NCBI GenBank assembly: GCA_036502465.1
Contig: DASXYO010000163.1
Span: forward strand, 1-58,081
Reading direction: 5' to 3'
DNA length: 58,081 bases
Source of the DNA: Chthoniobacterales bacterium
GTDB lineage: Bacteria; Verrucomicrobiota; Verrucomicrobiia; Chthoniobacterales; UBA10450
In this document: positions 23 to 58,081 of the stretch, one piece after another
How the letters are laid out: each line of letters begins with the position of its first letter
Numbering within the stretch: the first letter of the stretch is position 1
Translations under genes and position numbers: made by a program
The notes under the pieces: generated by a model
The model's database searches: none
Seen by the model: the letters and a program-made list of their open reading frames with translations, nothing else
What the model was told of the DNA's origin: nothing

Positions 23-1234
23 ATGATTGCCTGTCCTGATTGCGGCCTCCTGGAAGAGTTACCCTCGTTAGGCGGGGGAAGTAGCGCGGAGTGCGCGCTC
101 TGCGGCGCCGATCTCGAGCGGACGAGCGGCCGCAGCATCACGGCTGGTCTTTGTTGCGCGCTCGGAACTTTTTTTCTGCTCTTTCCCGCGAACGTCCTGC
201 TCATGCTGCGCGTGCACATCTTCGGCATGCATAACCAGAGCCGGCTCAGCACTGGCATTCTCGCCTTATGGGATGGCGATTGGCTGATTCTCGCCGCGCT
301 TACCGGGGCGTTCGCGGTTTTTCTGCCCTTCGTTCGGTTTGGTCTGCTATCCGCGGTTTTGGGTGCGCTCCGTTTTGGCTTCCGCGGCGGGTGGCTCGGA
401 CCGGTCTATCGCTGGGCGCTCTGGCTCGATGTCTGGGCCATGCCGGATGTTTATTTGCTCGCCGGCTTTGTCGGTTATTACCGGCTCATGCATGCCGGGC
501 CGCTCAAGGTCGCGCTCCAACCAGGCGGATACTGTTTTATCGCCGCGGCGATCTTTGCCATGCTTTCCCGCGCCACGATCGACCGGCGGACGGTTTGGCG
601 CGCCATCGCGCCGGAGGCGAAGGTGGAGGAGGACGAGGAAACAATCTCCTGCACCACCTGCGATCTGGTCCTGCCGCTCGCATGCACGGGCAAGCTCTGC
701 CACCGGTGCGGGGCGCGCCTGCATGTGCGCAAGCCGTACGCCGTCCTGCGCGCAACGGCGCTCACCGCCGCGGCTTTCATCCTGTTTTTTCCGGCCAACA
801 TTCTGCCCATGAACACGACCGTGCAGATGGGGAGCAAGGTCAATTACACGATTTTTCAGGGTGTGCATGAGTTGTTCACGGCGGGTCTCTGGCCCCTCGG
901 GGTCATCATTTTCTGCACCAGCATCGGGATTCCGGCGCTCAAGCTAATGGTCATGGCGTGGGTCCTCATCTCGGTTCGCTGGCGTTCGCGCAAACGCCTC
1001 GTGCTTAAGACCAGAATGCATCGCTTGATCAATGAAATCGGGCGCTGGTCGAATGTGGATCCATTTACGATCACCGTCTTTGTCCCGCTCATGACTTTTG
1101 GCAGCTTTGCTTCTTCGAAGGCCGGCTGGGGGGCGACGGCCTTCATTCTTGTCGTCGTCTTCACTCTCCTCTCTTCGATGTCGTTCGATTCACGTCTGCT
1201 CTGGGATGCGGCTGAGGAAGGGGAAAAGCCATGA
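23..1234 (+). CDS. pqiA: PqiA-family integral membrane protein (paraquat-inducible protein A-like)
   Basis: Two halves, each with a paired Cys motif (CPDCG..CALCG; CTTCD..CHRCG) followed by hydrophobic TM segments. Followed by an MCE protein and a lipoprotein. Its stop overlaps the next start by 4 nt (ATGA at 1231). Confidence 0.8.
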   Translation: MIACPDCGLLEELPSLGGGSSAECALCGADLERTSGRSITAGLCCALGTFFLLFPANVLLMLRVHIFGMHNQSRLSTGILALWDGDWLILAALTGAFAVFLPFVRFGLLSAVLGALRFGFRGGWLGPVYRWALWLDVWAMPDVYLLAGFVGYYRLMHAGPLKVALQPGGYCFIAAAIFAMLSRATIDRRTVWRAIAPEAKVEEDEETISCTTCDLVLPLACTGKLCHRCGARLHVRKPYAVLRATALTAAAFILFFPANILPMNTTVQMGSKVNYTIFQGVHELFTAGLWPLGVIIFCTSIGIPALKLMVMAWVLISVRWRSRKRLVLKTRMHRLINEIGRWSNVDPFTITVFVPLMTFGSFASSKAGWGATAFILVVVFTLLSSMSFDSRLLWDAAEEGEKP

Positions 1235-2517
1235 GCGACGAAAGGGAGGAGGAAAAAATGCCTCGCCGGCGCACCTCCTCCGAGGTCAAAGCCGCGACCA
1301 AACACAGCTGGTGGCCCGGTTGGATTTGGGCGGTGCCGCTGGCCGCGTTTGGCATCGGAGTCTGGCTGCTGGTGCGTTTTCTCACCCAGGGCGGCACGGA
1401 CATTACGATCACCTTTGAAGACGCCTACGGCATTTCGGCCGGCGACACGGTAATCAAATATCGCGGCACCAAGGTCGGCAGCATCGAGAGCGTCGATCTT
1501 TCTCAAGACGGCAAAGGAGTGAAAGTGGAAGCGACGATCAAGGACAGCGCGAAACAATTCCTCACTACCGGCACGTTATTCTACCTGCGCGGGGCCCAGC
1601 CGAGCCTGAGCAACCTTTCCTCGTTAGGCTCGGTCCTTTCCGGACCGACCGTGGTGATGGAGCCCGGGCCGGGGAAGAAGACGAAGCATTTCCAAGGGCT
1701 GGAAAAAAAGCCGGAAATCCCGCGCCAGCACGGGCCGCCGGTCCTCTTTAGGGTGCACTTCGACGGCGCGGTCGGCGATCTGAAGGAAGGCGACGCGGTC
1801 AAGCTGCGCGGCTTCGCGGTCGGCGAAGTGAAAGAGACGGGGTTCCATTACGACGCGGAGACCGGCAAAATCCGCACTCCGGTGACGGTTGCGCTCTATC
1901 CGACCCTCTTTCAGATCGAGCATGCGGCCGCCAAAGACCCGGCCGCGGCCCTGCAGGCTGCGCTCAAGCACCTTGTTGAGGAAGGGCTGCGCGCGAGCCT
2001 CGATCGCGAGCCGCCCTTGATCGGCAGTTATAGAGTCAGCTTCGAAATGGTTCCGGGCGCGCCGCAGGCCGAATTAAAAATCGCCGACAACCTGCCGGAA
2101 ATTCCGACCGCACCCGGCGGCGGTCTGCAATCGCTCGTCAGCAGCGTGAACAAAATCCCGCTCGACCAGATCTCGCAAAACGTTCTCGATCTCACGAAGC
2201 ATCTCGACCAGCTCGCTTCCTCGCCCAAGCTGAAGGAGAGCTTCGCCGAACTCGACGCCTCGCTGCAGGAAATTCATCGCACGGTCGAGACGATCGGTCC
2301 GAAGGTCGACCAGCTCGTGCGGACCTTGCGCAACACCGCCCACCAACTCGACCAGGCCTCGGCCGCGACCGCGAAAACGATCGGCGGCCCGGCCAGCCAG
2401 AACGGATTAAACGATACGATGCGGGAAGTGAAAGACGCCGCCCGCTCGATTCGTTCCCTCGCCGATTACCTCGAGCGCCATCCCGAATCGCTCATCTCAG
2501 GCAAACACGGAGAATGA
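1231..2517 (+). CDS. pqiB: MCE/MlaD-domain intermembrane transport protein (PqiB-like)
   Basis: N-terminal TM helix (WWPGWIWAVPLAAFGIGVWLLV), then MCE-like segments (ISAGDTVKYRGTKVGSI; GDAVKLRGFAVGEV) and a C-terminal helical region. Position between the pqiA-like and pqiC-like genes. Confidence 0.75.
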   Translation: MSDEREEEKMPRRRTSSEVKAATKHSWWPGWIWAVPLAAFGIGVWLLVRFLTQGGTDITITFEDAYGISAGDTVIKYRGTKVGSIESVDLSQDGKGVKVEATIKDSAKQFLTTGTLFYLRGAQPSLSNLSSLGSVLSGPTVVMEPGPGKKTKHFQGLEKKPEIPRQHGPPVLFRVHFDGAVGDLKEGDAVKLRGFAVGEVKETGFHYDAETGKIRTPVTVALYPTLFQIEHAAAKDPAAALQAALKHLVEEGLRASLDREPPLIGSYRVSFEMVPGAPQAELKIADNLPEIPTAPGGGLQSLVSSVNKIPLDQISQNVLDLTKHLDQLASSPKLKESFAELDASLQEIHRTVETIGPKVDQLVRTLRNTAHQLDQASAATAKTIGGPASQNGLNDTMREVKDAARSIRSLADYLERHPESLISGKHGE

Positions 2518-3074: not shown

Positions 3075-3188
3075 ACGTCGCCTTTTGCGTCGTCGCCAAA
3101 ATCTTCCCAAGCCCGTTTAAGAGATTCTCGTAAGGGCCTGCAGGGGTCGAAGAAGACACGTTCAGGCCGGGCTTTGTTCGATCTATTA

Positions 3189-3563
3189 ATGGTGACTATT
3201 GGGAAGAAAGAGTGGGCGATCGCCGAAGGCTGGATCCCTTCTTGGAGCCACGGTCCGGAGCCGGAAATGTTGAGCCACGAAACGGCCTGCATTCTGAATT
3301 CAAACGAGACCGCGGCGCAGGTGGAGATCACGATTTACTACACCGATCGCGATCCGGTTGGGCCCTACAAGATCACGGTCCCGCCCCGGCGCACGCTGCA
3401 TCAGCGTTTCAACGACTTAAAGGATCCGGAGCCGATTCCGAAGGCGACGAATTACGCGAGCACGATCGTTTCCGACGTGCCGATCGTCGTCCAGCACACC
3501 CGGCTCGATTCCCGGCAATCGGAGAACGCCCTCGTCACCACCATCGCATTTTCTAACGACTAA
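3189..3563 (+). CDS. Sensory rhodopsin transducer (ASRT)-family small beta-sandwich protein
   Basis: Strong resemblance to the Anabaena ASRT family along its length (WAIAEGWIP..GPEPEMLSHETACILN..VEITIYYTDRDPVGPY..VPIVVQHTRLDSRQSENAL). ATG at 3189 is preferred over the upstream TTG at 3174 used by the ORF track. Confidence 0.75.
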   Translation: MVTIGKKEWAIAEGWIPSWSHGPEPEMLSHETACILNSNETAAQVEITIYYTDRDPVGPYKITVPPRRTLHQRFNDLKDPEPIPKATNYASTIVSDVPIVVQHTRLDSRQSENALVTTIAFSND

Positions 3564-3566: not shown

Positions 3567-3577
3567 ACTCGAAAATT

Positions 3578-5368
3578 ATGTCAGAACTGGTCTCAGACTT
3601 CTTAATCAAACGCATCACCCAATGGGGGCTGAAACGGATCTACGGATTCCCCGGCGACGGGATTAACGGCATCATTGGCGCAATCGATCGCGCTGGCGAC
3701 AAGGTCGATTACGTGCAGGTGCGGCATGAAGAAATGGCCGCCTTCATGGCTTGCGCGCACGCCAAGTTCACCGGCGAAGTCGGCATATGCCTCGCCACTT
3801 CCGGGCCGGGCGCGATCCATCTTCTCAATGGGCTTTACGATGCGAAAATGGATCACCAGCCGGTGGTCGCAATTGTTGGGCAGCAGGCGCGGTCGGCGCT
3901 GGGTGGCGACTACCAGCAGGAGGTGGATCTCATCTCCCTCTTCAAGGATGTGGCTCACGAATATGTCCACATGGCTTCGACGCCGGCGCAGGTGCGCCAC
4001 CTCGTCGACCGCGCCATTCGCATCGCCAAGGCCGAGCGCACCGTCACCTGCATCATTTTCCCTAACGACCTCCAGGAATTGCCCGCGGTCGAGACGCCGC
4101 CGCGCAAACACGGCACGGTTCACTCCGGGATCGGCTATTCGGAGCCGCGCGTCATCCCGCGCGACGAAGATCTGCGCCGGGCGGCCGATATCCTGAACCA
4201 GGGTGAAAAGGTGGCCATGCTCGTGGGCGCGGGCGCGCTCGGGGCGAGCGATGAAGTCATGGGCGTAGCCGAGCTGCTCGGAGCGGGCGTGGCCAAGGCA
4301 TTGTTAGGCAAAGCCGTCATCCCGGATGACGTCTCCTATTGCACCGGCCCGATCGGATTGTTAGGCAGCAAGCCGAGCTGGGACATGATGACGGAATGCG
4401 ACACGCTTCTGATGGTCGGCTCGAGTTTTCCCTATTCGGAATTTCTCCCCAAGGAAGGCCAGGCCCGCGGCATCCAGATCGACATCGATCCCAAGATGCT
4501 CAGCATCCGGTATCCGACCGAAGTGAACCTGACCGGCGACAGCGCCGAGACCTTGCGCGCGCTTATCCCGCTCTTGGAACGGAAGAAAGACCGCTCCTGG
4601 CAGAAGAAGCTGGAAGGCGAGATCAAGGACTGGTGGAAAGTGCTCGAGGCCCGCGCCATGAACAGCGCCGAACCGATCAATCCCGAGCGGGTCTTCTGGG
4701 AGCTCTCCCCGCGCCTGCCCGACAATTGCATTCTCGCCTCCGACTCCGGCTCCGCGGCCAACTGGTTCGCGCGCGACCTCAAGGTGCGGCGCGGGATGAT
4801 GGCCTCGCTCTCCGGCAATCTCGCCACGATGGGCCCCGGCGTTCCTTATTCGGTGGCGGCGAAGTTTGCCTGGCCCGATCGGCCGGTCATCGCGCTCGTC
4901 GGCGACGGCGCGATGCTGATGAACGGGATCAACTGTCTCATCACGATCGCGAACTATTGGAAGGAATGGAGCGACCCGCGCCTCATCGTCATGGTGCTGG
5001 CGAATCGCGATCTCAACCAAGTGACCTGGGAACAGCGCGTGATGGCAGGCGACCCGAAATTCGAAGCTTCGCAAGACGTGCCGAAGTTCGCTTTCGCGAC
5101 CTACGCCGAGATGCTCGGTCTGCGCGGAATCCATGTCGAGAAACCAGAGGATGTCGGCCCGGCCTGGGACCGCGCGCTCGCCTCCGATCGGCCGGTTGTC
5201 TACGAGGCCATGACCGATCCCGAGGTGCCGACTTTGCCGCCGCACATCACCTTTGAGCAGGCGAAGAAATTCACCGAGTCGATGTTCAAGGGCGATCCCG
5301 GCATGCCGGGCATGCTGCGCGGCGCACTCAAGGACGCGGTTGAAAGCTTCATCCCGCACCAGGAGTGA
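3578..5368 (+). CDS. poxB: Thiamine-diphosphate-dependent pyruvate oxidase / pyruvate dehydrogenase (quinone), PoxB-like
   Basis: Full-length TPP enzyme architecture (N-terminal Pyr domain RHEEMAAFMACAHAKFTGE..ATSGPGAIHLLNGLYDA; C-terminal PP domain GDGAMLMN). Length 596 aa. Closest in pattern to PoxB rather than acetolactate synthase, but assignment within the family is tentative. Confidence 0.7.
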   Translation: MSELVSDFLIKRITQWGLKRIYGFPGDGINGIIGAIDRAGDKVDYVQVRHEEMAAFMACAHAKFTGEVGICLATSGPGAIHLLNGLYDAKMDHQPVVAIVGQQARSALGGDYQQEVDLISLFKDVAHEYVHMASTPAQVRHLVDRAIRIAKAERTVTCIIFPNDLQELPAVETPPRKHGTVHSGIGYSEPRVIPRDEDLRRAADILNQGEKVAMLVGAGALGASDEVMGVAELLGAGVAKALLGKAVIPDDVSYCTGPIGLLGSKPSWDMMTECDTLLMVGSSFPYSEFLPKEGQARGIQIDIDPKMLSIRYPTEVNLTGDSAETLRALIPLLERKKDRSWQKKLEGEIKDWWKVLEARAMNSAEPINPERVFWELSPRLPDNCILASDSGSAANWFARDLKVRRGMMASLSGNLATMGPGVPYSVAAKFAWPDRPVIALVGDGAMLMNGINCLITIANYWKEWSDPRLIVMVLANRDLNQVTWEQRVMAGDPKFEASQDVPKFAFATYAEMLGLRGIHVEKPEDVGPAWDRALASDRPVVYEAMTDPEVPTLPPHITFEQAKKFTESMFKGDPGMPGMLRGALKDAVESFIPHQE

Positions 5369-5426
5369 AGGGCCATGAGGTGTCGCCCTTCATTCCTTCG
5401 GGAAATGGGAGCGCGCCGCGTCCTCC

Positions 5427-5560
5427 GGGGAGCGCTCGCGCCTCGCGTGCTGACGATGGCGCCCTCGCCATCGCGGACTTTTCACCGCGACGTGAAGCAT
5501 TCAAAGAAAGCCTGTTTCGGCGAGGCGCCGAAACCAGCACGCGAGGCGCGTGCGCTCCCC
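5427..5560. mobile_element. MITE-like palindromic element, copy A1
   Basis: About 25-nt terminal inverted repeats (GGGGAGCGCTCGCGCCTCGCGTGC ... GCACGCGAGGCGCGTGCGCTCCCC). Two internal hairpins (GATGGCG-ccct-CGCCATC; GTTTCGGCG-agg-CGCCGAAAC). No coding capacity. Ends 2 nt before the ATG at 5563. Confidence 0.8.
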
Positions 5561-5562
5561 AG

Positions 5563-6654
5563 ATGAACGCCTCGCCGATCGAGAAACTGACCGTTTCGGC
5601 TTACAGAGTCCCGACCGATCAACCGGAATCCGACGGCACCTACGAGTGGGAGAGCACCACGATCGTGCTCGTGGAAGCGGAGGCGGCCGGACAGAGATCG
5701 TTAGGCTACACCTACGCTGACGAAGCGACAGCGACGCTGATCGATTCCAAACTGAAGGAGATTGTGCTCGGCCGCGACGCGCTTTCGCCTAACGACACCT
5801 TCGTCGCCCTCACGAAATCGATCCGCAACCTCGGCCGCCCCGGCATTTGCTCGATGGCGATCTCGGCCATCGACACCGCGCTCTGGGATTTGAAGGCGCG
5901 TCTCCTCAGGCTGCCGCTCGTCACGCTTTTTGGGCAGGTGCACGCGGCGATGCCGATCTATGGGAGCGGCGGGTTCACTTCCTATTCGAACGCGAAGTTG
6001 CAGGAACAACTCGGCGGCTGGGTCGAGCAGGGAATTCCCCGGGTGAAAATGAAAATCGGTCGCGATCCCGCGGCTGATCCGGAGCGCGTTGCGGCCGCGC
6101 GCGAGGCGATCGGCGACGAAGCACAGCTTTTCGTCGATGCGAACGGCGCTTATTCGCGCAAGCAGGCACTCGAATTCGCCTACGCTTTTTCGGAGCTCGA
6201 CGTTTCGTGGTTCGAAGAACCGGTGACGTCCGACGATCTGCCCGGGCTTCATCTCCTGCGCGACGACGGCCCGCCTGGGATGGAGATCGCGGCCGGCGAG
6301 TACGGCTACGACGTCACCTACTTCGAGCGCATGCTCGATGCGCAGGCGGTCGACGTTCTGCAAGCCGACGCCACGCGCTGCGGCGGCTATACCGGTTTCT
6401 TCCAGGCCGCCACGCTTTGTGAGGCGCATCATCTCCCGCTCTCGTCCCATTGCGCCCCGGCCCTGCACCTGCACGCGGCCTGCGCGGCGCCCCCTTTCCG
6501 GCACGCTGAATATTTTCACGATCACGTCCGGATTGAGCGGATGCTTTTCGAGGGCCTGCCCAAGCCTAACGACGGCGCGCTCCGGCCCGATCTCTCGCAA
6601 CCGGGGAACGGACTCGAACTCAAGCGCCAGGAGGCGGCCAAATTCGCCCTATGA
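5563..6654 (+). CDS. Enolase-superfamily enzyme (mandelate racemase / muconate lactonizing enzyme family)
   Basis: MR/MLE-type motifs (KMKIGRDP..; LFVDANGAY; SWFEEPV; DVLQAD). Start moved to the ATG at 5563, because the 66 codons upstream in the ORF-track model are read-through of repeat A1. Confidence 0.75.
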   Translation: MNASPIEKLTVSAYRVPTDQPESDGTYEWESTTIVLVEAEAAGQRSLGYTYADEATATLIDSKLKEIVLGRDALSPNDTFVALTKSIRNLGRPGICSMAISAIDTALWDLKARLLRLPLVTLFGQVHAAMPIYGSGGFTSYSNAKLQEQLGGWVEQGIPRVKMKIGRDPAADPERVAAAREAIGDEAQLFVDANGAYSRKQALEFAYAFSELDVSWFEEPVTSDDLPGLHLLRDDGPPGMEIAAGEYGYDVTYFERMLDAQAVDVLQADATRCGGYTGFFQAATLCEAHHLPLSSHCAPALHLHAACAAPPFRHAEYFHDHVRIERMLFEGLPKPNDGALRPDLSQPGNGLELKRQEAAKFAL

Positions 6655-6670
6655 CGTCGCAGGAGACTCT

Positions 6671-6805
6671 GGGGAGCGCACGCGCCCTCGCGTGCTGGTT
6701 TCGGCGCCCCGCCGAAACAGGCTTTTTCTTCCGCCCTGTCTTCCCGGCACAAGTTCGCGACGGCGAGGGCGCCATCGCCCGCACGCGAGGGCGCGTGCGC
6801 TCCCC
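6671..6805. mobile_element. MITE-like palindromic element, copy A2 (inverted relative to A1)
   Basis: Same termini (GGGGAGCGCACGCGCCCTCGCGTGC ... GCACGCGAGGGCGCGTGCGCTCCCC) and the same two inner hairpins in reverse order. Begins 16 nt after the enolase-family stop codon. Confidence 0.8.
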
Positions 6806-6855
6806 AGAAAAACTGCGACGCGCTGCGGGAAACATCACGTCCCCTTAACGAATTT

Positions 6856-9800
6856 ATGGCTAAAGTACTGGAACAAAATGTGAGCGATCCACCGTCCGGC
6901 GCGGCGCACCTGAACGAGACTCAACGCGCCACGCTGCCGGAAAAATTACGCGCCCGGATCAGCGGCGAAGTCCGCTTCGATGACGGGAGCCGCGCCCTCT
7001 ACGCGACCGACGGCTCAAATTATCGTCAACCACCGATCGGCGTCGTCATTCCCCGCAGCGTCGCCGACGTCATCAGCGCGATCGCGACCGCGCGCGAGTA
7101 CGGCGCGCCGATCACGAGCCGCGGCTGCGGCACCAGCCTGGCCGGACAATGCTGCAACACCTCGATCATCCTCGACATGTCGAAATACCTGAACCGGGTG
7201 CTCGAGATCGACGTCGAAAAAAAACTCGGCCGCGTCCAGCCCGGCACGATCCTCGACGATCTCCGTCACGCCGCGGAGAAACACGGGCTGACTTTCGGCC
7301 CCGACCCGGCGACGCATAATCATTGCACGCTCGGCGGCATGCTGGGCAACAACTCCTGCGGCATCCACTCCGTCATGGCGGCCTTCAACGGGACCGGCGC
7401 GCGCACTTCCGACAACACCCATGAACTCGAAATCCTGACCTACGACGGCGAGCGGATGAAGGTGGGCCCGACGAGTGAAGAAGAGTTGGAGGCGATTGTT
7501 AGGCAGGGCGGCCGCCGGGGTGAGATCTACGGAAAACTGCGCGCCCTGCGCGGTAAATACGCCGACCTCATCCGCGAAAAATTTCCCGATATTCCGCGAC
7601 GCGTTTCCGGTTACAACCTGCCCGAGCTGCTGCCGGAGAAAGGCTTCAATGTCGCGCGCGCACTCGTCGGAAGTGAGGGCACCTGCGTCACCATTCTCGA
7701 GGCCAGCCTGCGCCTGATTCCGAACCCGAAAGCGCGCAGCCTCCTCGTCCTCGGTTACCCCGATGTCTACAGCGCGGGCGATCACGCGCCCGAGATCATG
7801 GAGCACAAACCGATCGGGCTGGAAGGGATCGATCATCGTCTCATCGGTTACATGAAAAAGACCGGGCTCCATCCGCAGGACATCCAGCTTTTGCCCGATG
7901 GAAAGGGATTCTTGCTCGCCGAGTTTGGCGGCGATTCGAAGGAGGATTCAGACGCGAAGGCGCGCGAGGTGATGGAGGCGCTGAAGAAAAAGGGCGACGC
8001 GCCCAACATGAAACTCTTCGACGACAAAGAAGACGAATCGAAGGTCTGGGAGGTGCGCGAATCGGGTTTGGGCGCGACCGCGTTTGTCCCCGGGCTGCGC
8101 GACACCTGGCCGGGTTGGGAAGATTCCGCGGTCCCGCCGCAGAAGGTCGGTCCCTATCTGCGCGACCTGCGCAAGCTGTTTCACAAATACGATTATGAAG
8201 CCTCGCTTTACGGGCACTTCGGACAGGGTTGCATCCATTGCCGCATTCCGTTCGATCTCTATACCGCGAAGGGGATCGACCAATGGCGGGCCTTCCTCGA
8301 CGAAGCCTCCGATCTCGTCCTGAGCTACGGCGGTTCGCTCTCCGGCGAACACGGTGACGGCCAGGCGCGCGCCGAGCTGCTCCCGAAAATGTACGGACCG
8401 GAAATCATGCAGGCTTTCCGCGAGTTCAAATCGATCTGGGACCCGGAGTGGAAAATGAATCCAGGCAAGGTGATCGACGCCTACCCGATCACCTCCAATC
8501 TCCGGATCGGGAGCGACTACAATCCGCGCGAACCGAAAACCTACTTCGCTTACCCTAACGATGACGGCAGCTTCGCTCGCGCCGCTCTGCGTTGTGTCGG
8601 GGTCGGGAAATGCCGGCGGCTGGAGGGCGGGACGATGTGCCCGAGTTTCATGGTGACGCGCGAGGAAAAAGACGCGACCCGCGGCCGCGCTCATCTCCTT
8701 TTCGAGATGTTGCGCGGCGAAGTGATCGGCAAGAAAGGCTGGAAAGAAGAGAGCGTGAAAGACGCGCTCGATCTCTGCCTCGCCTGCAAAGGTTGCAAGG
8801 ATGATTGCCCGGTGAGCGTCGACATGGCGACCTACAAGGCGGAGTTCCTCGCGCATTATTACAAAGGCAGGCTGCGCCCGATCTACGCCTATGCCTTCGG
8901 CCTCATCCACGTCTGGGCTCGGCTCGCGCAGATCGCGCCGTCGCTGGTCAATTTCGTCAATCGCGCGCCGTTCCTGAGCAGCGTGGTGAAGGGATTCCTC
9001 CGCGTCGCGCAAGAGCGCACCATGCCGGCCTTCGCGCCGGAATCGTTCAAGAGCTGGTTCGCGCGGCGTCCGGTCCACAATCGTGGGCAAAAGCGCGTCC
9101 TGCTTTGGCCCGACACCTTTAACAATTATTTTCACCCCGCGGTGGCGAAGGCGGCGGTGGAAGTCCTGGAGGACGCCGGTTTCCAGGTCGTGCTGCCGAA
9201 ACGCGACCTCTGCTGTGGACGGCCGCTCTACGACTACGGCATGCTCGACACCGCGCAGCGCTGGCTTCTCCAGATTCTCGATTCGTTAGGCGAGGAAATC
9301 GAAGCCGGCACCCCGATCGTCGGCCTCGAGCCGAGCTGCACCGCGGTCTTTCGCGACGAGGTTTACGAGATGTTCCCGCATCACGAAAACGCGCGCCGTT
9401 TGAAAAAGCAGACCTTCACCCTCGCGGAATTCATCGAGAAACACGCCCCCGATTACGAGGTGCCAAAGTTGCAGCGCAAGGCGCTCGTGCACGGCCACTG
9501 CCATCACAAAGCGGTCATGCATCTCGATTGTGAAAAGAAACTGCTCGAGAAAATCGGCCTCGACTACAAGGTGCCGGATTCCGGCTGTTGCGGAATGGCC
9601 GGCGCTTTCGGCTTTGAGGCCGACAAATACGACGTCTCGATCGCGATCGGCGAACGCGTTCTTTTGCCGGCGGTGCGAAAGGCAGCCAAGGACACGCTGA
9701 TCATCGCAGATGGCTTCAGTTGTCGCACCCAGGTGCAGGAAACAACCAACCGTCATGCCCTCCACCTCGCGCAGGTCCTGAAGATGGGTCTTGAGCACGG

Positions 9801-10187: not shown

Positions 10188-10847
10188 ATGGCACAGATTT
10201 TCGCCCGTAGCTCCAACGTCCATTCCAAGGTCATCATTGTCCTCGTCGTCGTTCTGGTCTGCGGAGCGGGCTGGACGACTTACGCGGTTTTTTGGTCGCC
10301 CTATACCACCTACGTCGGCGTGCCCCTCGACCAGCCGGTCCCCTTTAGTCACAAGCACCACGTCGGCGATGACGGGATCGATTGCCGCTATTGCCACACC
10401 TCGGTCGAGAAATCCTCGTTCGCCGGCGTTCCGAGCACGCAGGTTTGCATGACCTGCCACTCGCAGCTCTGGAACGAAACGCCCACTCTCGCGCCGGTCC
10501 GGGCCAGCCTAACGAGTGACAAACCGTTGCGCTGGAATCGGGTCAACGACCTGCCGGATTTCGTCTATTTCAATCACAGCATCCACGTCAACAAAGGTGT
10601 CGGCTGTTCCACCTGCCACGGCGAGATCGACAAAATGCCGCTCACCTGGCGGGCGCAGACGCTTTACATGAAGTGGTGTCTCGAGTGCCATCGCGCGCCG
10701 CAGAATTACGTCCGGCCGAGTGACCAGATTTATAACCTGCACTGGAAACCGCCGCCCGATCAGGAAAAACAAGGCGCCCGGCTCGTCGCGCAATACCGGA
10801 TCGACACGAGCGGTCGCCTAACGAACTGCTCTGTCTGCCACCGATGA
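10188..10847 (+). CDS. actA: Alternative Complex III subunit ActA, pentahaem cytochrome c
   Basis: N-terminal TM helix plus five CxxCH motifs (CRYCH, CMTCH, CSTCH, CLECH, CSVCH). First gene of an act-type operon. Confidence 0.85.
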   Translation: MAQIFARSSNVHSKVIIVLVVVLVCGAGWTTYAVFWSPYTTYVGVPLDQPVPFSHKHHVGDDGIDCRYCHTSVEKSSFAGVPSTQVCMTCHSQLWNETPTLAPVRASLTSDKPLRWNRVNDLPDFVYFNHSIHVNKGVGCSTCHGEIDKMPLTWRAQTLYMKWCLECHRAPQNYVRPSDQIYNLHWKPPPDQEKQGARLVAQYRIDTSGRLTNCSVCHR

Positions 10848-28318: not shown

Positions 28319-28344
28319 GTATCGTTAGGCGGGGCTGCCAGCCG

Positions 28345-40815: not shown

Positions 40816-40833
40816 GCCTCGACACAAATTTTC

Positions 40834-52023: not shown

Positions 52024-53625
52024 ATGCTCAATCCGGTCAGCTTCCCGATTCCGTTGCCGGACGATCCGCGCAAGTGGGACGGCTGGAGCCGCTATAATTC
52101 GCCCGACCCGTACGAGCGGCTCTGCCTCGATCCGCAGACCAATCCGAGCAACGATCTGATCGAAGAGCGCTTTCGCGAGCTGCTCTTGTGGTGGCAGAAA
52201 AAGCTCCCGCTCAAAAATCAGCCGAGCAATCCGCTCGCCCAGCTGCTCCGTTCCGGGCTCGATGAATCTTCCCGCTTCCTGACCGAGGCGCGGGTCGAGC
52301 TGCTCAACCCCGAGCGGCGCCGAGAGCTCGACAACGAACTAGCCGCCCAGGCCGAGCAGCGAGCGATCGCGGAGTTCCACAAATACATGACGTTCGCGCT
52401 GAACGACAAAACCCTCTCGCCTCAGGAGGAGGACACGCTCCTGGCGTTTGGACATCAGCACGGGCTGAAAGACGAGCGGATGTTCGAGCTGATCGAGGCG
52501 GAATTGCTGAAGTGCGGGGCCGTCCGCGTGACGCCGCCTCCCCCGCCGGCGTTGGCCGAGGCTGTCGTGGAAAAGGTCGCCACCAATCTCGATCCGAACG
52601 AGGATTTCATGCGGATGTTGCGGCTGAGCGGGCTTGACGCCGACGAGATGACCGACGACCAGCGCGACGCGTTTGTGAATATGGCGGAAAATCTCGGGAT
52701 TGACCCGGGCGACGCCGAGGATTTGGTCGATCTCTACCTGGAAGAGATCGAAGAAAAATCGGCCCCTCCGCCGAAGCCGGTCGTAGTGGTCGCGCCGAAG
52801 GCGCCGGTCGTTTCGACTAACGGCGCGAGCCCGGCGCCGGTCGCGAGAGCCGTTACCGCGGTCGATATCGCAGCGGAGCGAGCTCGCTTCGCAAATTTTA
52901 CGAGCAGCATTGGCGCGCAATTACTCCTCGTTCCGTCGGGAAGTTTCGAGATGGGAAGCGAGGCGGCCGACTCTGCGCCTAACGAACGGCCGATTACTCC
53001 CGTCACTCTGACCCGCTATTACCTCTCCCGCTTCCCGATCACCAACGCGCAATACGAATCATTCGATCCCAGCCACCTTCGGAAAAGGGCGCCGGGGGCG
53101 GGCGACCAGCATCCGGTCGTTTACGTGAGCAGCACCGACGCGATCAAGTTTTGCCAATGGCTCAGCTCGCGCGATCGCCGCCGTTACCGGCTCCCGACCG
53201 AGGCGGAGTGGGAGTATGCCGCGCGCGGCGCGGACGGACGCAAATATCCGTGGGGAAGCCAGGAAGGCCGCGGCGACCTCGCAAACTTCGCCGACCGCAA
53301 CACGGTTTTTGCCTGGAGCGACCGCGAGATTGATGACGGCTATGCCGAGAGTTCGCCGGTGGGATCGTTTCCGCTGGGGGCGAGCCCTTTCGGGATGGAA
53401 GACATGGCGGGCAACGTCTGGGAATGGTGCCTGGACTTTTTCGAAGCTTACCGGGGAACTCCGAAGATGAACCCTCGCGGAGCTGTCTCTGGGTTGAAGC
53501 GAATCTACCGCGGCGGCAGCTGGAAATCGCGTTTCAACAGTCTGCGGACGACGACCCGGGGTTCAAACGTGCCGAATTACACCTGCAACGATCTTGGATT
53601 TCGGATCGTCTGCGAATGCGAATAG
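52024..53625 (+). CDS. Multidomain protein: degenerate J-like domain (no HPD) + helical repeats + Pro-rich linker + FGE/SUMF1-like domain
   Basis: N-terminus is J-like (DPYERLCLDP...IEERFRELLLWW...ARVELLNPERRRELDNEL) but has no His-Pro-Asp. C-terminus has FGE-sulfatase motifs (RLPTEAEWEYAARG; GNVWEWC; YRGGSW). Its start lies 1 nt after the Hsp70 stop. Confidence 0.7.
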   Translation: MLNPVSFPIPLPDDPRKWDGWSRYNSPDPYERLCLDPQTNPSNDLIEERFRELLLWWQKKLPLKNQPSNPLAQLLRSGLDESSRFLTEARVELLNPERRRELDNELAAQAEQRAIAEFHKYMTFALNDKTLSPQEEDTLLAFGHQHGLKDERMFELIEAELLKCGAVRVTPPPPPALAEAVVEKVATNLDPNEDFMRMLRLSGLDADEMTDDQRDAFVNMAENLGIDPGDAEDLVDLYLEEIEEKSAPPPKPVVVVAPKAPVVSTNGASPAPVARAVTAVDIAAERARFANFTSSIGAQLLLVPSGSFEMGSEAADSAPNERPITPVTLTRYYLSRFPITNAQYESFDPSHLRKRAPGAGDQHPVVYVSSTDAIKFCQWLSSRDRRRYRLPTEAEWEYAARGADGRKYPWGSQEGRGDLANFADRNTVFAWSDREIDDGYAESSPVGSFPLGASPFGMEDMAGNVWEWCLDFFEAYRGTPKMNPRGAVSGLKRIYRGGSWKSRFNSLRTTTRGSNVPNYTCNDLGFRIVCECE

Positions 53626-54087: not shown

Positions 54088-56439
54088 CTACGGTGTCGGC
54101 GTCGGTCTCGCGGCGGATGTCTTTTGGATCACTTCCCGGCGCAAACTGCTCGCGCTGCCGCCCCGTGCCCGGGTCCACCAGAGCACGATCGGTGACGCGA
54201 TGAAGACCGACGAGTAGGTGCCGACGACCACACCGATAATGATGGCCAGGGCAAAATCCTGCAGGACGGCGCCGCCGAAAAAGTAGAGGCACAAGATCGG
54301 GATGAGCGTTGTCGTGCTCGTTAGGATCGTGCGACTCAGCGTCTGATTGACGCTCTCGTTCATGATCTGCTCGATGGAGCCTTTCCGACTGCTGGCCAGT
54401 CCCTCGCGGATTCGATCGTAAACCACGATCGTGTCGTTGATCGAGTAACCGGCGATGGTGAGCACGGCTCCGACCATCGTGAGCGTCAGCTCGCGACCGA
54501 GCAGCGCAAACATGCCGACAGTGATGAGCACGTCGTGCAGCAGCGCAACGATCGCGCCGACCGCAAAAGAAAATTCGAAGCGGAAGGTGACGTAGATCAA
54601 AATTCCCAGGATTCCGAGCCCGAGCGCTATGAGCGAACTCCGGGCCAATTCACCGCCAACCAAGGCGCCGACGCGCTCCGATCCCTCGATCTTGTAACCT
54701 TCATTGGGGAAGGATTGCAGGATCTGATGCTCGATCTTGTCACTCGTGTTTAGCGGGCTCCGGATCGTGAGGTAGCTGCGATCGCCTTGTTGCGATTGCT
54801 GGATGGCGACGTCCGCCAAACCGATTTGCTGGAGCACTCCGCGCACTTGGGCGACATCGATCTTGTGGGGCGCGCTCAAGGTCGCGAGATCGCCGCCCCG
54901 AAAGTCCACGCCGAAGTTTTTCTCGCCGCGCTTGTAGAAGGCGGCCGCGCCGCCCAGGATGAGGGCGAGCGAGCACATGCTCGCGATGAAGCCTTTGCCA
55001 AGAAAGTTCCAGTTCTTGGGCGAGATCAAATGCAGCATCGAGATTTTCGTGAGCCGTCCTGTTTCGACGAGCCAACTCAAGGCATTGCGTCCGACGATGA
55101 GGGCGGTAAAGAGCGAAGCCAGGATCCCGAGCATGAGCACGATGGCGAAGCCCTTGACTGGCCCGCTGGCATAGAAAAACAGGATCGTCGCCGTGATGAG
55201 GGTGGTCACGTTGGCGTCGAAAATGGAGCTGAACGCCTTGTCGTAGGCCGCGGGCAAGGCAACCCGAAGAGATTTCCCGCTCGCCAATTCTTCGCGTAAT
55301 CGTTCGTAAATCAGAACGCTCGCGTCCACCGCCATGCCGATGGTGAGGATGATACCGGCAATACCAGGCAGGGTCAGAACGACTCCGCCGGGAATTAATT
55401 GAAACTCACCCAGCAGGAGGATGAGGTTCACAATCAGGGCAAGATTCACCACCAGACCCGCGAATTTGTAGTAAACCGCGACGCAAACCAGGGTCACGGC
55501 AAGTCCGATCAAACCCGCGCGAATACTCGCCCGGATTGAATCCAAGCCCAGGGTCGGCGAGACGCTGCGTTCTTCTTCGATGCTAACCGGCACTTGCAAC
55601 GGGTTCTCCAGCACGCTGGCCAGGCCGCGGGCTTCCTGTTCCTGGAAGCTCCCGGTGATGATGGCGTCGCCTCCGTAAATGGCTGTCCGGATACTGGGTG
55701 CCGATTGAATCACTCCGTCGAGGACGATGGCGAATCGATGCCCGACATTCGCCTCGGTGATCTGGCCAAATTTCTTCGCACCTTCGCTGTCAAACTTGAG
55801 CTGGACCGTCCAGCCATCGTTCCCGTAGTAGGCGTTGGATTCTGTCACCCGGTCGCCGCCGAGATCCGCCTTTTTCTTCACCAGCAAGCGCTCGGTGACC
55901 GGCTTCTCGCCCGGGTTCCTCGGCTGCATTTTGTAGGTCTCGATGCGGTACTCGGGCGGAATCACTTCCGTTCCTGCATCGATCGCACGCAGTCGTGCGC
56001 CATCGTCTGGATAAACGAGTCGGAATTCGAGCTTCGCCACCCGCGAAAGCTGGTCGCGCGCTTCCTGGATCTTCGCGGCATCAAGGCCGGGAATTTGCAC
56101 AAGAATGCGGTCCGTTCCGACCGGGCTGATGACCGGCTCCCCGCTGCCGAAATAATCCACGCGTTTGCGGATCACTTCGACCGCCTGGTCGAGCATTCCT
56201 TTGCTCAACGTCTTGTCCTCGCTCTTTAGGCGGATGAGGAAGGAGGTGCCGCCCTTGATGTCGAGACCAAGGCGCACCTTTTCTTTCAGCGGAAAAATGC
56301 TCCAGATGCTGAAAACCACCAGGAGGACGACCAGCGTGGCCGCCAACAAGTGTTTCCGCTGACCGCGATCGGTCGCGAAATACCATCCAAAGAGGACGAG
56401 CAGGCCGAGGCCCATGAAAAATTCGACGATGGAATTCAT
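54088..56439 (-). CDS. secDF: Protein translocase subunit SecDF (fusion)
   Basis: 783 aa. SecD periplasmic domain plus 12-TM RND-like pattern (LGLDIKGG; LTLPGIAGIILTIGMAVDA; SecF half INDTIVVYDRIRE). Confidence 0.9.
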   Translation of the reverse strand: MNSIVEFFMGLGLLVLFGWYFATDRGQRKHLLAATLVVLLVVFSIWSIFPLKEKVRLGLDIKGGTSFLIRLKSEDKTLSKGMLDQAVEVIRKRVDYFGSGEPVISPVGTDRILVQIPGLDAAKIQEARDQLSRVAKLEFRLVYPDDGARLRAIDAGTEVIPPEYRIETYKMQPRNPGEKPVTERLLVKKKADLGGDRVTESNAYYGNDGWTVQLKFDSEGAKKFGQITEANVGHRFAIVLDGVIQSAPSIRTAIYGGDAIITGSFQEQEARGLASVLENPLQVPVSIEEERSVSPTLGLDSIRASIRAGLIGLAVTLVCVAVYYKFAGLVVNLALIVNLILLLGEFQLIPGGVVLTLPGIAGIILTIGMAVDASVLIYERLREELASGKSLRVALPAAYDKAFSSIFDANVTTLITATILFFYASGPVKGFAIVLMLGILASLFTALIVGRNALSWLVETGRLTKISMLHLISPKNWNFLGKGFIASMCSLALILGGAAAFYKRGEKNFGVDFRGGDLATLSAPHKIDVAQVRGVLQQIGLADVAIQQSQQGDRSYLTIRSPLNTSDKIEHQILQSFPNEGYKIEGSERVGALVGGELARSSLIALGLGILGILIYVTFRFEFSFAVGAIVALLHDVLITVGMFALLGRELTLTMVGAVLTIAGYSINDTIVVYDRIREGLASSRKGSIEQIMNESVNQTLSRTILTSTTTLIPILCLYFFGGAVLQDFALAIIIGVVVGTYSSVFIASPIVLWWTRARGGSASSLRREVIQKTSAARPTPTP

Positions 56440-56826: not shown

Positions 56827-57002
56827 GATGGAATAATTGGTCTGCGTGGCAACGGCGCGCAATAAGCGCGACTGACCTGCCAAAGCGAGCATTCCACTGA
56901 GCACAGTTGCGGCCCAATTGCAAGATGCAGCACGCTTCGAATAATGTAGTTCGAAGCGCAAATGGGCTAACAGAGGCCCGGAATTTTACATGCCGGACGG
57001 GG

Positions 57003-58081
57003 ATGTTACGTTTTGGTCTATTGAATCAAAACCCGCCATTCCCAACGCCGGAAGAACTGCAGAGCAAGCTCTCCGAATTCATGAAATCGAACTTCGGAGA
57101 CAAAGTCTCTTTCGCGAGCTTTGCCCAGCCCGAGCGCGCCGAAGAGGGCGATGACGAAAAGCCGATCCAGCAGAGCGGCGACCATTTTGTTTTCGATTTT
57201 CTGCCACGCGACATCAAGGCCCATCTCGACCGCTTTGTTATCAAGCAGGACGAAGCGAAAAAGGTCCTCTCGATCGCGGTCTGCGATCACTACAACCACG
57301 TCAATTACATCCGCCAGTTGGAGAGCGAAGACGCTCTCCGCGCCGAGGAGACCGAGTACGCGAAACAAAACGTCATCCTCGTCGGCCCGACCGGGGTTGG
57401 AAAAACTTACCTCATCAAGCACATCGCCGACCTGATCAAAGTTCCGTTCGTCAAAGCCGACGCGACCAAGTTTAGCGAGACCGGTTACGTCGGCGGCGAT
57501 GTGGAGGATCTCGTTAGGGAGCTTGTCCAGAAGGCTGATGGCGATGTTGGCCTCGCGCAGTTTGGCATCATCTACATCGACGAAGTCGACAAGCTGGCCG
57601 CGGCTTCCAACATGCACGGTCGCGACGTGAGCGGGCGCGGCGTCCAGACGACGCTCCTCAAGCTAATGGAAGAAACCGAAGTGCCGCTGCGGAGCGCGAA
57701 CGATCTCCAGGGACAGCTTCAGGCCGCCTTTGAATTCCAGAAGCGCGGGAAGGCGAAGCGCGAAACAATCAGCACGCGGCACATCTTGTTTGTCGTGAGC
57801 GGCGCCTTCGAGCGTTTGAAGACGCAGGTCTCGAAGCGGCTCGCGCAGGGGCAGATTGGGTTCAAGGCCGAGCCGGTCAAAGTGCTCGACAACGAAATCT
57901 TCCAGCACGTCGGGACGCAGGATTTTGTCGAGTACGGGTTCGAGCCGGAATTCATCGGCCGGCTTCCGGTTCGAGTCGTCTGCGAGGAACTGACGGCGGA
58001 CGATCTCTTCAAGATCATGAAGTTTTCCGAGGGCAGCATCCTGCGGCAATACGAGCGCGCCTTCCGCGCCTACGGGATCGA
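57003..58081 (+). CDS. ClpX-like AAA+ ATPase lacking the N-terminal zinc-binding domain (3' partial, runs off the window)
   Basis: Not in the ORF track because there is no stop in the window. My translation is MLRFGLLNQNPPFPTPEELQSKLSEFMKSNFGDKV...LDRFVIKQDEAKKVLSIAVCDHYNH...VILVGPTGVGKTYL (Walker A)...IIYIDEVDKL (Walker B)...EPEFIGRLPV. An alternative start is the ATG at 57081. Confidence 0.75.
   Translation, partial: MLRFGLLNQNPPFPTPEELQSKLSEFMKSNFGDKVSFASFAQPERAEEGDDEKPIQQSGDHFVFDFLPRDIKAHLDRFVIKQDEAKKVLSIAVCDHYNHVNYIRQLESEDALRAEETEYAKQNVILVGPTGVGKTYLIKHIADLIKVPFVKADATKFSETGYVGGDVEDLVRELVQKADGDVGLAQFGIIYIDEVDKLAAASNMHGRDVSGRGVQTTLLKLMEETEVPLRSANDLQGQLQAAFEFQKRGKAKRETISTRHILFVVSGAFERLKTQVSKRLAQGQIGFKAEPVKVLDNEIFQHVGTQDFVEYGFEPEFIGRLPVRVVCEELTADDLFKIMKFSEGSILRQYERAFRAYGI

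Follow-up and report, generated by a model that had tools for sequence, protein, structure and literature searches.

GCCTAACGA, a hyper-abundant lineage-specific word in genomes of uncultured soil Chthoniobacterales and a possible self-DNA tag

Introduction

To our knowledge, self tags for DNA uptake have so far been found only in relatives of Neisseria and Haemophilus. Such USS and DUS words occur at a density of roughly one per kb. All of the hyper-abundant short words described to date (DUS and USS, and increasingly also cyanobacterial HIP1) are tied to transformation, and the function of HIP1 is still unsettled. DUS and USS reach "hundreds to thousands of copies" (bioRxiv 10.1101/2025.10.24.684340). 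Terminators contain about half of all DUS/USS copies. For HIP1, conservation at orthologous sites above the synonymous background has been used as an argument for selection (PMC5861425), and its abundance co-varies with orphan methyltransferases (PMC4390886).

Here we describe GCCTAACGA, which occurs about once per kb and in both orientations throughout the genomes of one uncultured group of soil Chthoniobacterales (Verrucomicrobiota). No prior description of this motif was found in the literature. By analogy with DUS/USS or HIP1, we tentatively read it as a genome-wide, lineage-specific self-DNA tag that may act in natural transformation.

Results and discussion

The window, the whole 58-kb stretch of DNA analysed, is an ordinary piece of chromosome from an uncultured member of the Chthoniobacterales, with a GC content of 60.4%. 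An initial annotation had listed 64 exact copies of CCTAACGA in it, 34 on the + strand and 30 on the − strand, and every coordinate matches. Dinucleotide-preserving shuffles (n=100) held a mean of 0.81 copies and at most 4, and an order-3 Markov model predicts 2.4. Shuffling synonymous codons gene by gene (n=1000) left 2.1 genic copies (maximum 7) versus the 58 observed. The excess, first put at tens-fold, is therefore ~27-fold by a codon-aware observed/expected ratio. CCTAACGA ranks first among the 8-mers of the window, as do GCCTAACGA among the 9-mers (47 copies) and CGCCTAACGA among the 10-mers (24 copies). The copies are spaced no more evenly than at random (CV 0.93).

Motif copies in the window (coordinates, strand, 5' base, location)
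65-72, −, G, pqiA-like gene, TCG-TTA-GGn Ser-Leu-Gly
1621-1628, −, G, MlaD-like gene, Ser-Leu-Gly
2702-2709, +, G, lipoprotein gene, CTA-ACG Leu-Thr
4061-4068, +, C, TPP-enzyme gene, Pro-Asn-Asp/Glu
5698-5705, −, G, MR_MLE gene, Ser-Leu-Gly
5788-5795, +, G, MR_MLE gene, Pro-Asn-Asp/Glu
6565-6572, +, G, MR_MLE gene, Pro-Asn-Asp/Glu
8554-8561, +, C, FAD-oxidase gene, Pro-Asn-Asp/Glu
9283-9290, −, G, FAD-oxidase gene, Ser-Leu-Gly
10508-10515, +, G, ACIII cytochrome c gene, Leu-Thr
10817-10824, +, G, ACIII cytochrome c gene, Leu-Thr
11933-11940, −, G, ACIII Fe-S subunit gene, Ser-Leu-Gly
12155-12162, +, G, ACIII Fe-S subunit gene, Pro-Asn-Asp/Glu
12348-12355, −, C, ACIII Fe-S subunit gene, Val-Arg
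12859-12866, +, G, ACIII Fe-S subunit gene, Leu-Thr
13217-13224, +, G, ACIII Fe-S subunit gene, Pro-Asn-Asp/Glu
13971-13978, +, G, NrfD-like gene, Pro-Asn-Asp/Glu
15701-15708, −, G, ActD gene, Ser-Leu-Gly
16077-16084, +, G, cytochrome c gene, Leu-Thr
16417-16424, +, G, cytochrome c gene, Pro-Asn-Asp/Glu
16982-16989, +, C, gene 16449-17612, Leu-Thr
18108-18115, +, G, SCO1/SenC gene, Leu-Thr
19300-19307, +, C, COX2 gene, Leu-Thr
22823-22830, +, C, metallophosphoesterase gene, Leu-Thr
25644-25651, −, G, RecF/SMC_N-like ATPase gene; ortholog in 4 relatives (alignment column 975)
25870-25877, −, G, ortholog in 3 relatives (alignment column 746)
26018-26025, +, G, ortholog in 2 relatives (alignment column 598)
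26273-26280, +, C, ortholog in 1 relative (alignment column 343)
26858-26865, −, G, transglutaminase-like gene; ortholog in 3 relatives
28322-28329, −, G, intergenic or gene boundary
28579-28586, −, G, gene of 940-aa protein, Ser-Leu-Gly
28950-28957, +, G, ortholog in 2 relatives (alignment column 608)
29635-29642, −, G, ortholog in 5/5 aligned relatives (alignment column 1296)
30031-30038, −, G, ortholog in 4 relatives (alignment column 1692)
30262-30269, −, G, ortholog in 1 relative (alignment column 1926)
30580-30587, +, G, ortholog in 3 relatives (alignment column 2244)
31080-31087, +, G, ortholog in 1 relative (alignment column 2759)
31701-31708, +, C, M48 peptidase gene, Leu-Thr
32919-32926, −, A, provides TAG stop of M48 peptidase gene
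32951-32958, −, C, S1/P1 nuclease gene, Pro-Asn-Asp/Glu
33026-33033, −, C, ortholog in 2 relatives
34149-34156, +, G, intergenic, SMC and nuclease genes on either side; found in relatives too
34245-34252, +, G, provides TAG stop of SMC gene; same-place copy in 7/7 motif-rich relatives (L081-L087)
34854-34861, −, A, SMC gene; ortholog in 2 relatives (alignment column 3359)
36109-36116, +, G, ortholog in 5/7 relatives (alignment column 2077); retained in motif-poor L088 too
36698-36705, +, G, ortholog in 6/7 relatives (alignment column 1485)
38830-38837, −, C, permease gene; left arm of the window's only close inverted pair
38849-38856, +, G, permease gene; right arm, inverted pair with 38830-38837
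40726-40733, +, G, M20 peptidase gene; ortholog in 5 relatives (alignment column 1290)
40809-40816, −, G, provides TAG stop of M20 peptidase gene
40939-40946, −, G, NlpC/P60 gene
41846-41853, −, G, intergenic
42124-42131, +, C, QueC gene; ortholog in 4 relatives (alignment column 645)
42508-42515, +, G, QueC gene; ortholog in 3 relatives (alignment column 258)
42709-42716, −, G, QueF gene
43646-43653, −, C, motif copy
46018-46025, −, G, cytochrome c assembly gene
47461-47468, −, G, HemC gene, Val-Arg
47594-47601, +, G, HemC gene, Leu-Thr
48859-48866, −, G, CobA/HemD gene, Ser-Leu-Gly
49575-49582, +, G, CobA/HemD gene, Leu-Thr
52978-52985, +, G, FGE-sulfatase gene, Pro-Asn-Asp/Glu
54318-54325, −, T, SecDF gene, Leu-Thr
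57511-57518, −, C, AAA+ ATPase gene, Val-Arg

The motif is a bare 9-mer, G/C-CCTAACGA, without conserved flanks. Its 5' base is G in 47 and C in 14 of the 64 copies, identical to the first count, and its logo has a strict CTAAC core with looser edges. Outside positions −4 to +9 the information falls to about zero, so the copies do not belong to one longer dispersed repeat. This refutes the idea that the copies are remnants of a mobile element or dispersed repeat such as REP or MITE, to which we give a negligible chance; high copy number is all that such an origin would explain. In addition, ~90% of the window copies are within housekeeping genes, in four reading frames, copies recur at orthologous codons in distant relatives, and there was no match in Rfam.

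The initial annotation had also held that the signal acts at the DNA level and that coding sequence tolerates it, and computation supports both, to the point that the motif is imposed on coding sequence. Its frame assignments hold: 14 copies encode Pro-Asn-Asp/Glu, 21 Leu-Thr, 16 Ser-Leu-Gly and 7 Val-Arg, and 6 lie between genes or at their boundaries. The frame that contains a stop occurs solely at true stop codons, with 3 of the 15 TAG stops of the window inside motif copies. The motif encodes 78-85% of all occurrences of the tripeptide Pro-Asn-Asp/Glu and 73-80% of those of Ser-Leu-Gly, versus 1-6% expected. Motif copies have raised the frequency of both tripeptides in the proteome, where they are 2.4-7 times commoner than in motif-poor genomes. 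Moreover, 23-28% of all TTA/CTA codons fall inside motif copies. This near-saturation of compatible peptides suggests a drive for maximal copy number rather than selection of particular sites. Permissive positions, namely intergenic DNA and stop codons, are preferred, with 2.4 copies per kb outside genes and 1.0 inside.

Enrichment is also seen outside the window, in relatives as well as in unrelated genome regions. In seven relatives (SMC identity 92% to 63%) the motif ranks first among k-mers, at 0.67-1.77 copies per kb, the same order as DUS/USS. A pooled 216 kb contains 196 copies of GCCTAACGA versus 1.2-3.5 expected, and soil-metagenome loci that are non-syntenic with the window hold 12-24 copies each. 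One relative, L087, has an extended dialect, GCCTAACGAGT. Enrichment is intermediate in two further loci (L089 and L307) and at background level in L088, the sister of L087, where no replacement motif was found. In 80 loci from other phyla the motif was at background.

The motif shows no strand polarity. The near-equal orientation first reported (34:30) recurs over 16 loci (166:181), none of which is individually skewed. Signals for polar chromosome processing, such as Chi (RecBCD/AddAB) or KOPS (FtsK), would likewise be short, non-palindromic, over-represented and tolerated within genes. Moreover, the first 23 kb of the window has all of its genes on the + strand, and 19 of the 26 copies there share that strand. 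However, orientation is balanced even in L226 (13:11), where all genes are co-directional. Chi and KOPS show only a few-fold excess, far below the 27 to >100 fold seen here, and the motif has been lost in one sister lineage. We thus strongly disfavour such a signal as highly improbable.

Motif copies are kept where synonymous sites have otherwise diverged. At orthologous positions, 33-86% of motif sites are retained versus 8-34% for random 8-mers, so that motif copies are kept 3-5 times more often, and this difference persists where amino acids are unchanged. Such conservation, the argument also made for HIP1 selection, is compatible with the motif being bound with high affinity by an abundant protein of the chromosome and kept by purifying selection per site, as proposed for HIP1. 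This protein could serve nucleoid organisation, chromosome folding or another form of self-recognition apart from transformation. The strict core with looser edges resembles a protein-binding logo, and use in both orientations fits as well. Yet a structural role is not expected to disappear from L088 without a replacement motif, spacing looks random, there is no known candidate protein, and near-saturation points to a drive for copies. We consider this reading rather unlikely.

The two one-mismatch variants noted initially are present at their coordinates, with 8 copies each versus ~0.4 expected. The commonest one-off variants are the transition neighbours GCCTAACAA (18), GCCTGACGA (12) and GCCTAACGG (12). 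This would be in line with a by-product of a sequence-specific methyltransferase and biased, very-short-patch-like mismatch repair, or of some other bias in mutation or repair, which converts near-matches to matches and leaves a motif with no function of its own. A pattern that hangs on a single dispensable enzyme should be lineage-specific and losable, as this one is, and the co-variation of HIP1 with orphan methyltransferases is a precedent. Nevertheless, known short-patch systems recognise palindromic contexts of 4-5 bp, whereas this motif is an asymmetric 9-mer. The force here shifts amino acids 2.4-7 fold and overrides codon bias. One-step neighbours show no visible depletion, but with expected counts of about 1 none could be discerned. 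Among the genes of the 58-kb window there are none for methyltransferases. On balance, we judge a repair by-product improbable.

A self-DNA tag in natural transformation is the reading that we tentatively prefer. Some protein presumably reads the motif, and by analogy the process would be DNA uptake or transformation. A sequence-specific component of the uptake or processing machinery would prefer motif-bearing DNA. The motif would then spread, and be restored wherever coding constraints permit, because motif-bearing fragments would be taken up and recombined more often. The driving force would be molecular drive, possibly together with selection.

Against this reading, there are no genes for competence or pilins in the 58-kb window. 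A selected protein-binding site or a strong biased-repair process would likewise be expected to yield each of the genomic signatures found.

With respect to foreign DNA, the case for depletion in accessory regions has two sources: a low-sensitivity scan of viral contigs, which found none at host-like motif density, and a single insert in L081, with 3 copies over 8.5 kb.

The likeness to uptake signal sequences proposed at the outset stood in part. The motif is closer to them than to Chi or KOPS, but while DUS and USS are often in terminator hairpins, none of the 64 window copies is inside a terminator-like hairpin. The only close inverted motif pair in the window lies inside a gene; in other loci, inverted motif pairs are found at convergent stops.

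Abundance and form of the word

We recovered 64 exact copies of CCTAACGA by pattern search of the window, 34 on the forward and 30 on the reverse strand, each at the coordinate reported in the initial annotation. This 8-mer is the core of the 9-mer GCCTAACGA (hereafter the word), and the reverse strand reads TCGTTAGG. Dinucleotide-preserving shuffles (n = 100) contained a mean of 0.81 and a maximum of 4 copies of the 8-mer, and an order-3 Markov model predicted 2.4. The large excess that had been estimated from composition also stood up to a codon-aware null, in which protein sequences and per-gene codon usage were fixed and synonymous codons alone were shuffled. Across 1000 such shuffles, 2.1 genic copies were expected and at most 7 were reached, compared to 58 observed. 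In a k-mer census of the window (60.4% GC), the top 8-mer was CCTAACGA, the top 9-mer was GCCTAACGA with 47 copies, and the top 10-mer was CGCCTAACGA with 24 copies. Even spacing of the copies is not supported; the coefficient of variation of their spacing (0.93) was no different from random.

The preference for G (47 copies) or C (14 copies) 5' of the 8-mer was confirmed. A logo drawn from all 248 copies in the window and seven related loci confined the information to G or C followed by CCTAACGA, with a weak pyrimidine bias from -4 to -2 and no signal beyond. Since the flanks carry no information beyond this weak bias, the copies are not fragments of a longer repeat. Dispersed repeats of the REP or MITE type are expected to be longer units that lie mainly outside genes, whereas 58 of the 64 copies here are intragenic, and we therefore give almost no credence to such an origin.

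Both one-mismatch variants of the initial annotation were found where it had placed them, with 8 copies each compared to approximately 0.4 expected. In 216 kb of pooled sequence, the word occurred 196 times against an expectation of 1.2-3.5, and most of its single-base variants occurred at roughly their expected frequency. The few exceptions mostly concern edge positions or transitions, and apart from them the CTAAC core is strict.

Single-base variants of the word above expectation in 216 kb of pooled sequence
CCCTAACGA, 39 copies
GCCTAACAA, 18 copies
GACTAACGA, 12 copies
GCCTGACGA, 12 copies
GCCTAACGG, 12 copies
ACCTAACGA, 10 copies

The one-mismatch variants are mostly not decayed copies; relatives carry the perfect word at only one of 11 testable sites. 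One variant, CCTAACAA, starts at 36098 in the SMC gene and precedes the perfect copy (36109) by 11 nt (window 36098-36116). It is unchanged in five of seven aligned relatives and thus forms a conserved tandem with the perfect copy.

Placement in genes and effect on proteins

Six of the 64 window copies are intergenic or located at gene ends. The 58 intragenic copies are read in the four frames that had been described, encoding Pro-Asn-Asp/Glu (14 copies), Leu-Thr (21), Ser-Leu-Gly (16) and Val-Arg (7). The remaining frame, which contains TAG or TAA, occurs solely at genuine gene ends, again as first noted; of the 15 genes in the window that end in TAG, three take this stop from TCGTTAGG. Across loci, copies are denser outside genes (2.4 per kb) than inside (1.0 per kb). 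Genes were called by a simple GC3-based procedure, whose stops are reliable and whose starts are not.

The word dominates the codon contexts that can accommodate it. It encodes 14 of the 18 Pro-Asn-Asp/Glu tripeptides in the window, where codon usage predicts 5%, and 16 of the 20 Ser-Leu-Gly tripeptides, where codon usage predicts 1%. Of the Leu-Thr contexts, 49% are encoded by the word, compared to 0.5% expected. Copies also account for 23%-28% of the leucine codons TTA and CTA in these genes. Motif-rich loci encode 1.05 Pro-Asn-Asp/Glu per 1000 residues, compared to 0.15 in motif-poor loci of similar GC. The corresponding values for Ser-Leu-Gly are 1.24 and 0.51, and control tripeptides in reversed order showed no comparable excess in motif-rich loci. 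The proteome is shifted by a force that acts at the DNA level.

The window has 114 terminator-like hairpins, none of which overlaps any of the 64 copies. Window copies form a single close inverted pair, located inside a permease gene. At three loci from a search that selected close inverted pairs, two convergent genes both take their TAG stop from an inverted pair (TCGTTAGG ... CCTAACGA). These are L205 (2587-2609), L303 (1909-1934) and L216 (4965-5009), and the palindromic arrangement provides two stop codons and a potential hairpin.

Orientation of the copies

The near-equal orientation seen at the outset was upheld over 16 loci, with a ratio of 166:181 and no single locus off 1:1, as counted within each locus. 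In L226, a metagenome locus in which all genes are co-directional, the orientations were 13:11. Relative to genes, 112 copies were sense and 82 antisense. This ratio and the balanced orientation exclude a signal that acts at the RNA level.

Chi and the KOPS/AIMS octamers resemble the word in being short, asymmetric, over-represented and tolerated in coding DNA. In contrast to the word, they are polar, and strong co-orientation with replication would be expected of a signal of this type. Furthermore, the excess of the word surpasses theirs by one to two orders of magnitude, and the word has been lost in a sister lineage (L088, described below). The balanced orientation in effect excludes a polar signal of the Chi or KOPS type, and we regard this explanation as very improbable.

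Conservation at orthologous sites

We next aligned 20 orthologous genes by codon to measure conservation. A large number of copies recur at identical codons in several relatives; one site in the SMC gene is common to seven of eight taxa, and another to six of eight, including the 63% relative. The initial annotation had placed the signal at the DNA rather than the protein level, and this was borne out at orthologous positions, where 33-86% of the window copies are retained per relative, compared to 8-34% of arbitrary 8-mers. Motif sites are retained at 3-5 times background, for example in two of the relatives, L084 (12 of 23 window copies, background 10.7%) and L085 (13 of 22, background 12.1%). 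The gap holds also at sites without amino-acid change. For intergenic copies, the evidence of conservation is anecdotal and limited to the SMC-nuclease spacer. Many copies are lineage-specific, which shows that the sites turn over.

Distribution beyond the window

Enrichment is not confined to the window. The SMC neighbourhoods of seven motif-rich relatives (L081-L087, with 92% to 63% SMC identity) carry 0.67-1.77 copies per kb, and in every one of them CCTAACGA ranks at or close to the top of the 8-mers, with balanced orientation; as orthologous loci they are non-independent samples. The closest SMC homologues, with 92% to about 60% identity, all come from soil metagenomes, and those with labels are assigned to Chthoniobacterales, Spartobacteria or Verrucomicrobiota. 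The taxon names of the motif-rich genomes are these NCBI labels and otherwise rest on MAG labels in databases. An accessory TPR/PIN insert in L081 contains 0.35 copies per kb compared to 1.4 in the syntenic core, a value that comes from one insert.

L087, the most distant of the seven, uses a dialect, GCCTAACGAGT, which is roughly T-Y-GCCTAACGA-G-T-n-n-T. Here the base at -1 is G in 97% of the copies, and 18 of the 30 copies read GCCTAACGAG. Compared to these 30 copies in about 23.7 kb, the following loci contain far fewer.

Loci with background or intermediate levels of the word
L088, sister of L087 with 76% SMC identity, 2 copies in 23.7 kb (background)
L307, closest to L088 with 80% SMC identity, 9 copies in 23.7 kb (intermediate)
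L089, 60% SMC identity to the window, 12 copies in 23.8 kb (intermediate)

At the motif sites of L087, the motif-poor L088 shows 2-5 mismatches. The best candidate for a replacement motif in L088, TGGCGGAG (observed/expected ratio of 6), resembles Leu-Ala-Glu codons and does not amount to a similar signal. We argue from the loss in L088 and the intermediate level in L307 that the signal depends on a dispensable determinant. Such a determinant, we further argue, fits three of the hypotheses weighed here and fits an essential architectural role least well. That the word is the selected site of an abundant DNA-binding protein seems unlikely to us.

A GTDB scan with COX1 yielded only relatives of at most 77% identity, spread over many phyla, and these were used as motif-free controls; the exact COX1 of the window has no database record. 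The 80 control loci, which belong to other Verrucomicrobiota, to Planctomycetota, Acidobacteriota and additional phyla, contained 0-1 copy each. A metagenome-wide search with a close inverted pair as the query returned 120 loci, of which approximately 25-30 hold many more copies (GC 55-66%). Examples are L226, with 24 copies in 12 kb, and L274, with 16 copies in 12.9 kb. All but two or three of the copy-rich loci represent parts of the genome that have no relation to the window, and their genes are ordinary ones for metabolism and transport, indicating that the enrichment is genome-wide and clade-wide.

One of the inverted-pair loci raised the question of a second phylum. L205 (metagenome contig Ga0307408_100003769, GC 66%) carries seven copies in 10.3 kb, and the closest named sequence to its GH31 enzyme is a protein labelled Gemmatimonadetes (80%). 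Since the MAG contig of that protein (L306, Gemmatimonadota) contains no copy, L205 is at most a candidate for occurrence outside Chthoniobacterales.

A scan of viral contigs, which was of low sensitivity, found no contig at host-like density, and the viral matches to the inverted pair are chance pairs that do not qualify as phage evidence. Two IMG/VR contigs, L166 (1392-1500) and L107 (11093-11168), contain arrays of 3-4 palindromes of the form TCGTTAGGA(A/T)(A/T)AATCCTAACGA. These lie inside genes for O-like replication initiators of approximately 300 aa, as lambdoid-style origin iterons whose half-site is the word. Considering that the rest of both contigs is not enriched, this match is probably a coincidence, most likely selected by the search. 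Another viral contig, L154 (GC 54%), contains four copies of GCCTAACGA within approximately 220 nt (3684-3909) and none in the remaining 4 kb.

Comparison with known uptake sequences and HIP1

Uptake sequences are described as 9-10-mers with hundreds to thousands of copies, dialects, a preference for permissive places, avoidance of the stop-containing frame and frame biases (bioRxiv 10.1101/2025.10.24.684340). Like the word, the uptake signal sequences (USS, core AAGTGCGGT) of Pasteurellaceae have a 9-nt non-palindromic core that occurs approximately once per kb in both orientations. Their copies also lie mostly inside genes, avoid the stop-containing frame and inflate the encoded tripeptides in the proteome. 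In addition, their positions are conserved between related species, and they are distributed at the family level with variants. In contrast, the USS sequence is unrelated to the word and has AT-rich flanking segments that the word lacks, and the word is hosted by a GC-rich soil genome of the Verrucomicrobiota.

The uptake sequences of Neisseriaceae (DUS, GCCGTCTGAA and its dialects) share with the word the copy density, the clade-specific dialects (here that of L087) and the higher density outside genes. Uptake sequences are expected to be enriched in the core genome and depleted in phages and newly acquired DNA, and the low density in one accessory insert of L081 may be a further likeness to DUS. 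DUS and the word also share inverted pairs between convergent genes, which we found in some loci that were selected for such pairs. The DUS sequence is likewise unrelated to the word. DUS are largely intergenic, with roughly half of them in terminators, whereas about 90% of the window copies are intragenic. Systems of the DUS/USS type are expected to have a dedicated receptor, such as the minor pilin ComP or the predicted ComN, and a competence machinery, none of which is encoded in the window.

The word thus resembles DUS and USS in its abundance over three nulls, its two orientations, its sharing within a clade with dialects and conserved positions, and its permissive placement and proteome effect. 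The large share of copies in terminators (approximately half), often as inverted repeats, is not found in the window. The likeness to uptake signals that was first proposed stands for density, orientation and tolerance in coding sequence, extends to dialects and conservation, and fails for terminator hairpins, both against DUS and against USS.

HIP1, the highly iterated palindrome of cyanobacteria, occurs in 15-300 fold excess, shows conservation both inside ORFs and between them, is lacking from certain lineages and reportedly has a 10-90 kb periodicity (PMC5861425, PMC4390886). The word shares this degree of excess and this conservation, and it resembles HIP1 as an 8-9-mer that averages up to approximately one copy per gene, acts at neither the peptide nor the RNA level and is absent from parts of its clade. 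Unlike the asymmetric word, HIP1 is a palindromic octamer with the sites of two orphan methyltransferases (GATC and CGATCG). We consider it quite improbable that the word is a by-product of a methyltransferase or of biased repair. We also looked at CGATCGCG (43 copies) and GCGATCGC (28 copies), which occur throughout the window and also in L081, as a second HIP1-like signal. They are compositional, because they reach only approximately 1.5-2 times the order-3 Markov expectation.

Judged by analogy, the genomic behaviour of the word matches the account given of uptake sequences in Pasteurellaceae and Neisseriaceae, apart from the terminator hallmark, and it also matches that of HIP1, which is now being linked to transformation. 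For this reason, we favour, at a confidence just short of even, the reading that the word is a tag of self-DNA. Such a tag would bias natural transformation, and the word would spread through the genome by molecular drive.

The word appears to be undescribed, as the initial annotation had supposed: full-text searches returned no paper linking it to Verrucomicrobia or Chthoniobacter. The literature likewise contained no report of uptake sequences in Verrucomicrobia and nothing relevant on competence in Udaeobacter. Sequence-specific self-DNA tags were known from only two proteobacterial families in a 2025 survey (bioRxiv 10.1101/2025.10.24.684340), and surveys of 2025-2026 list only the same two. 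We tentatively suggest that GCCTAACGA could be a third, independent sequence that confers specificity on DNA uptake, and the first one from beyond the Proteobacteria. HIP1 is a debated possible third case of a self-DNA tag, and if it is counted, the word would be a fourth example.

As a candidate self-DNA tag in a new phylum, the word would have several implications. If the uptake reading is true, abundant uncultured soil Verrucomicrobia (Chthoniobacterales) would be naturally competent and prefer the DNA of their own kind, and species-biased gene flow would be predicted in a lineage that dominates soils and is so far beyond experimental manipulation. Because the word is unrelated and occurs in soil and in another phylum, it would also suggest that such tags have arisen repeatedly and are no mere peculiarity of Proteobacteria associated with hosts. 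Under the same reading, the dialect in L087 and the recent loss in lineages such as L088 would make the receptor findable by comparative genomics. The contrast of L088 with L087 and L307 is a natural gain and loss comparison through which a protein recognizing the word could be found. If the word is not an uptake signal, there is still a DNA-level force that fills approximately 80% of the compatible codon contexts and measurably alters proteins. The word could also be useful for the binning and taxonomic assignment of metagenomic contigs, as well as for the design of transforming DNA.

Gene content of the window and minor features

By annotation, the genes of the window are ordinary chromosomal ones only.

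Genes annotated in the window
PqiA/MlaD, SecDF, YajC
Alternative complex III, cytochrome oxidase
TPP enzyme, alanine dehydrogenase, M48 and M20 peptidases, QueC, QueF, haem synthesis
SMC, GrpE, Hsp70

No competence, pilin or methyltransferase genes are encoded within these 58 kb, and an Rfam search of the window gave no match. ARAGORN called a tRNA-Gln(CTG) at 41458-41531, inside an NlpC/P60 ORF. This is probably a false positive; no tRNA reached the Rfam gathering threshold in the whole window. A homolog of the Anabaena sensory rhodopsin transducer (PF07100, E = 9e-54) is located at 3174-3563, and the window contains no rhodopsin gene.

A self-complementary element of approximately 145 nt, with no third copy in the window, flanks an MR_MLE (enolase-superfamily) gene at 5421-5566 and 6667-6808. 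The two copies are direct repeats with a spacing of approximately 1245 nt. Each forms an inverted repeat internally, with arms of approximately 40 nt, and one 40-nt arm shows 98% complementarity from copy to copy. The MR_MLE ORF was called from 5365 and thereby includes the upstream copy, so that the gene probably begins downstream of 5566.
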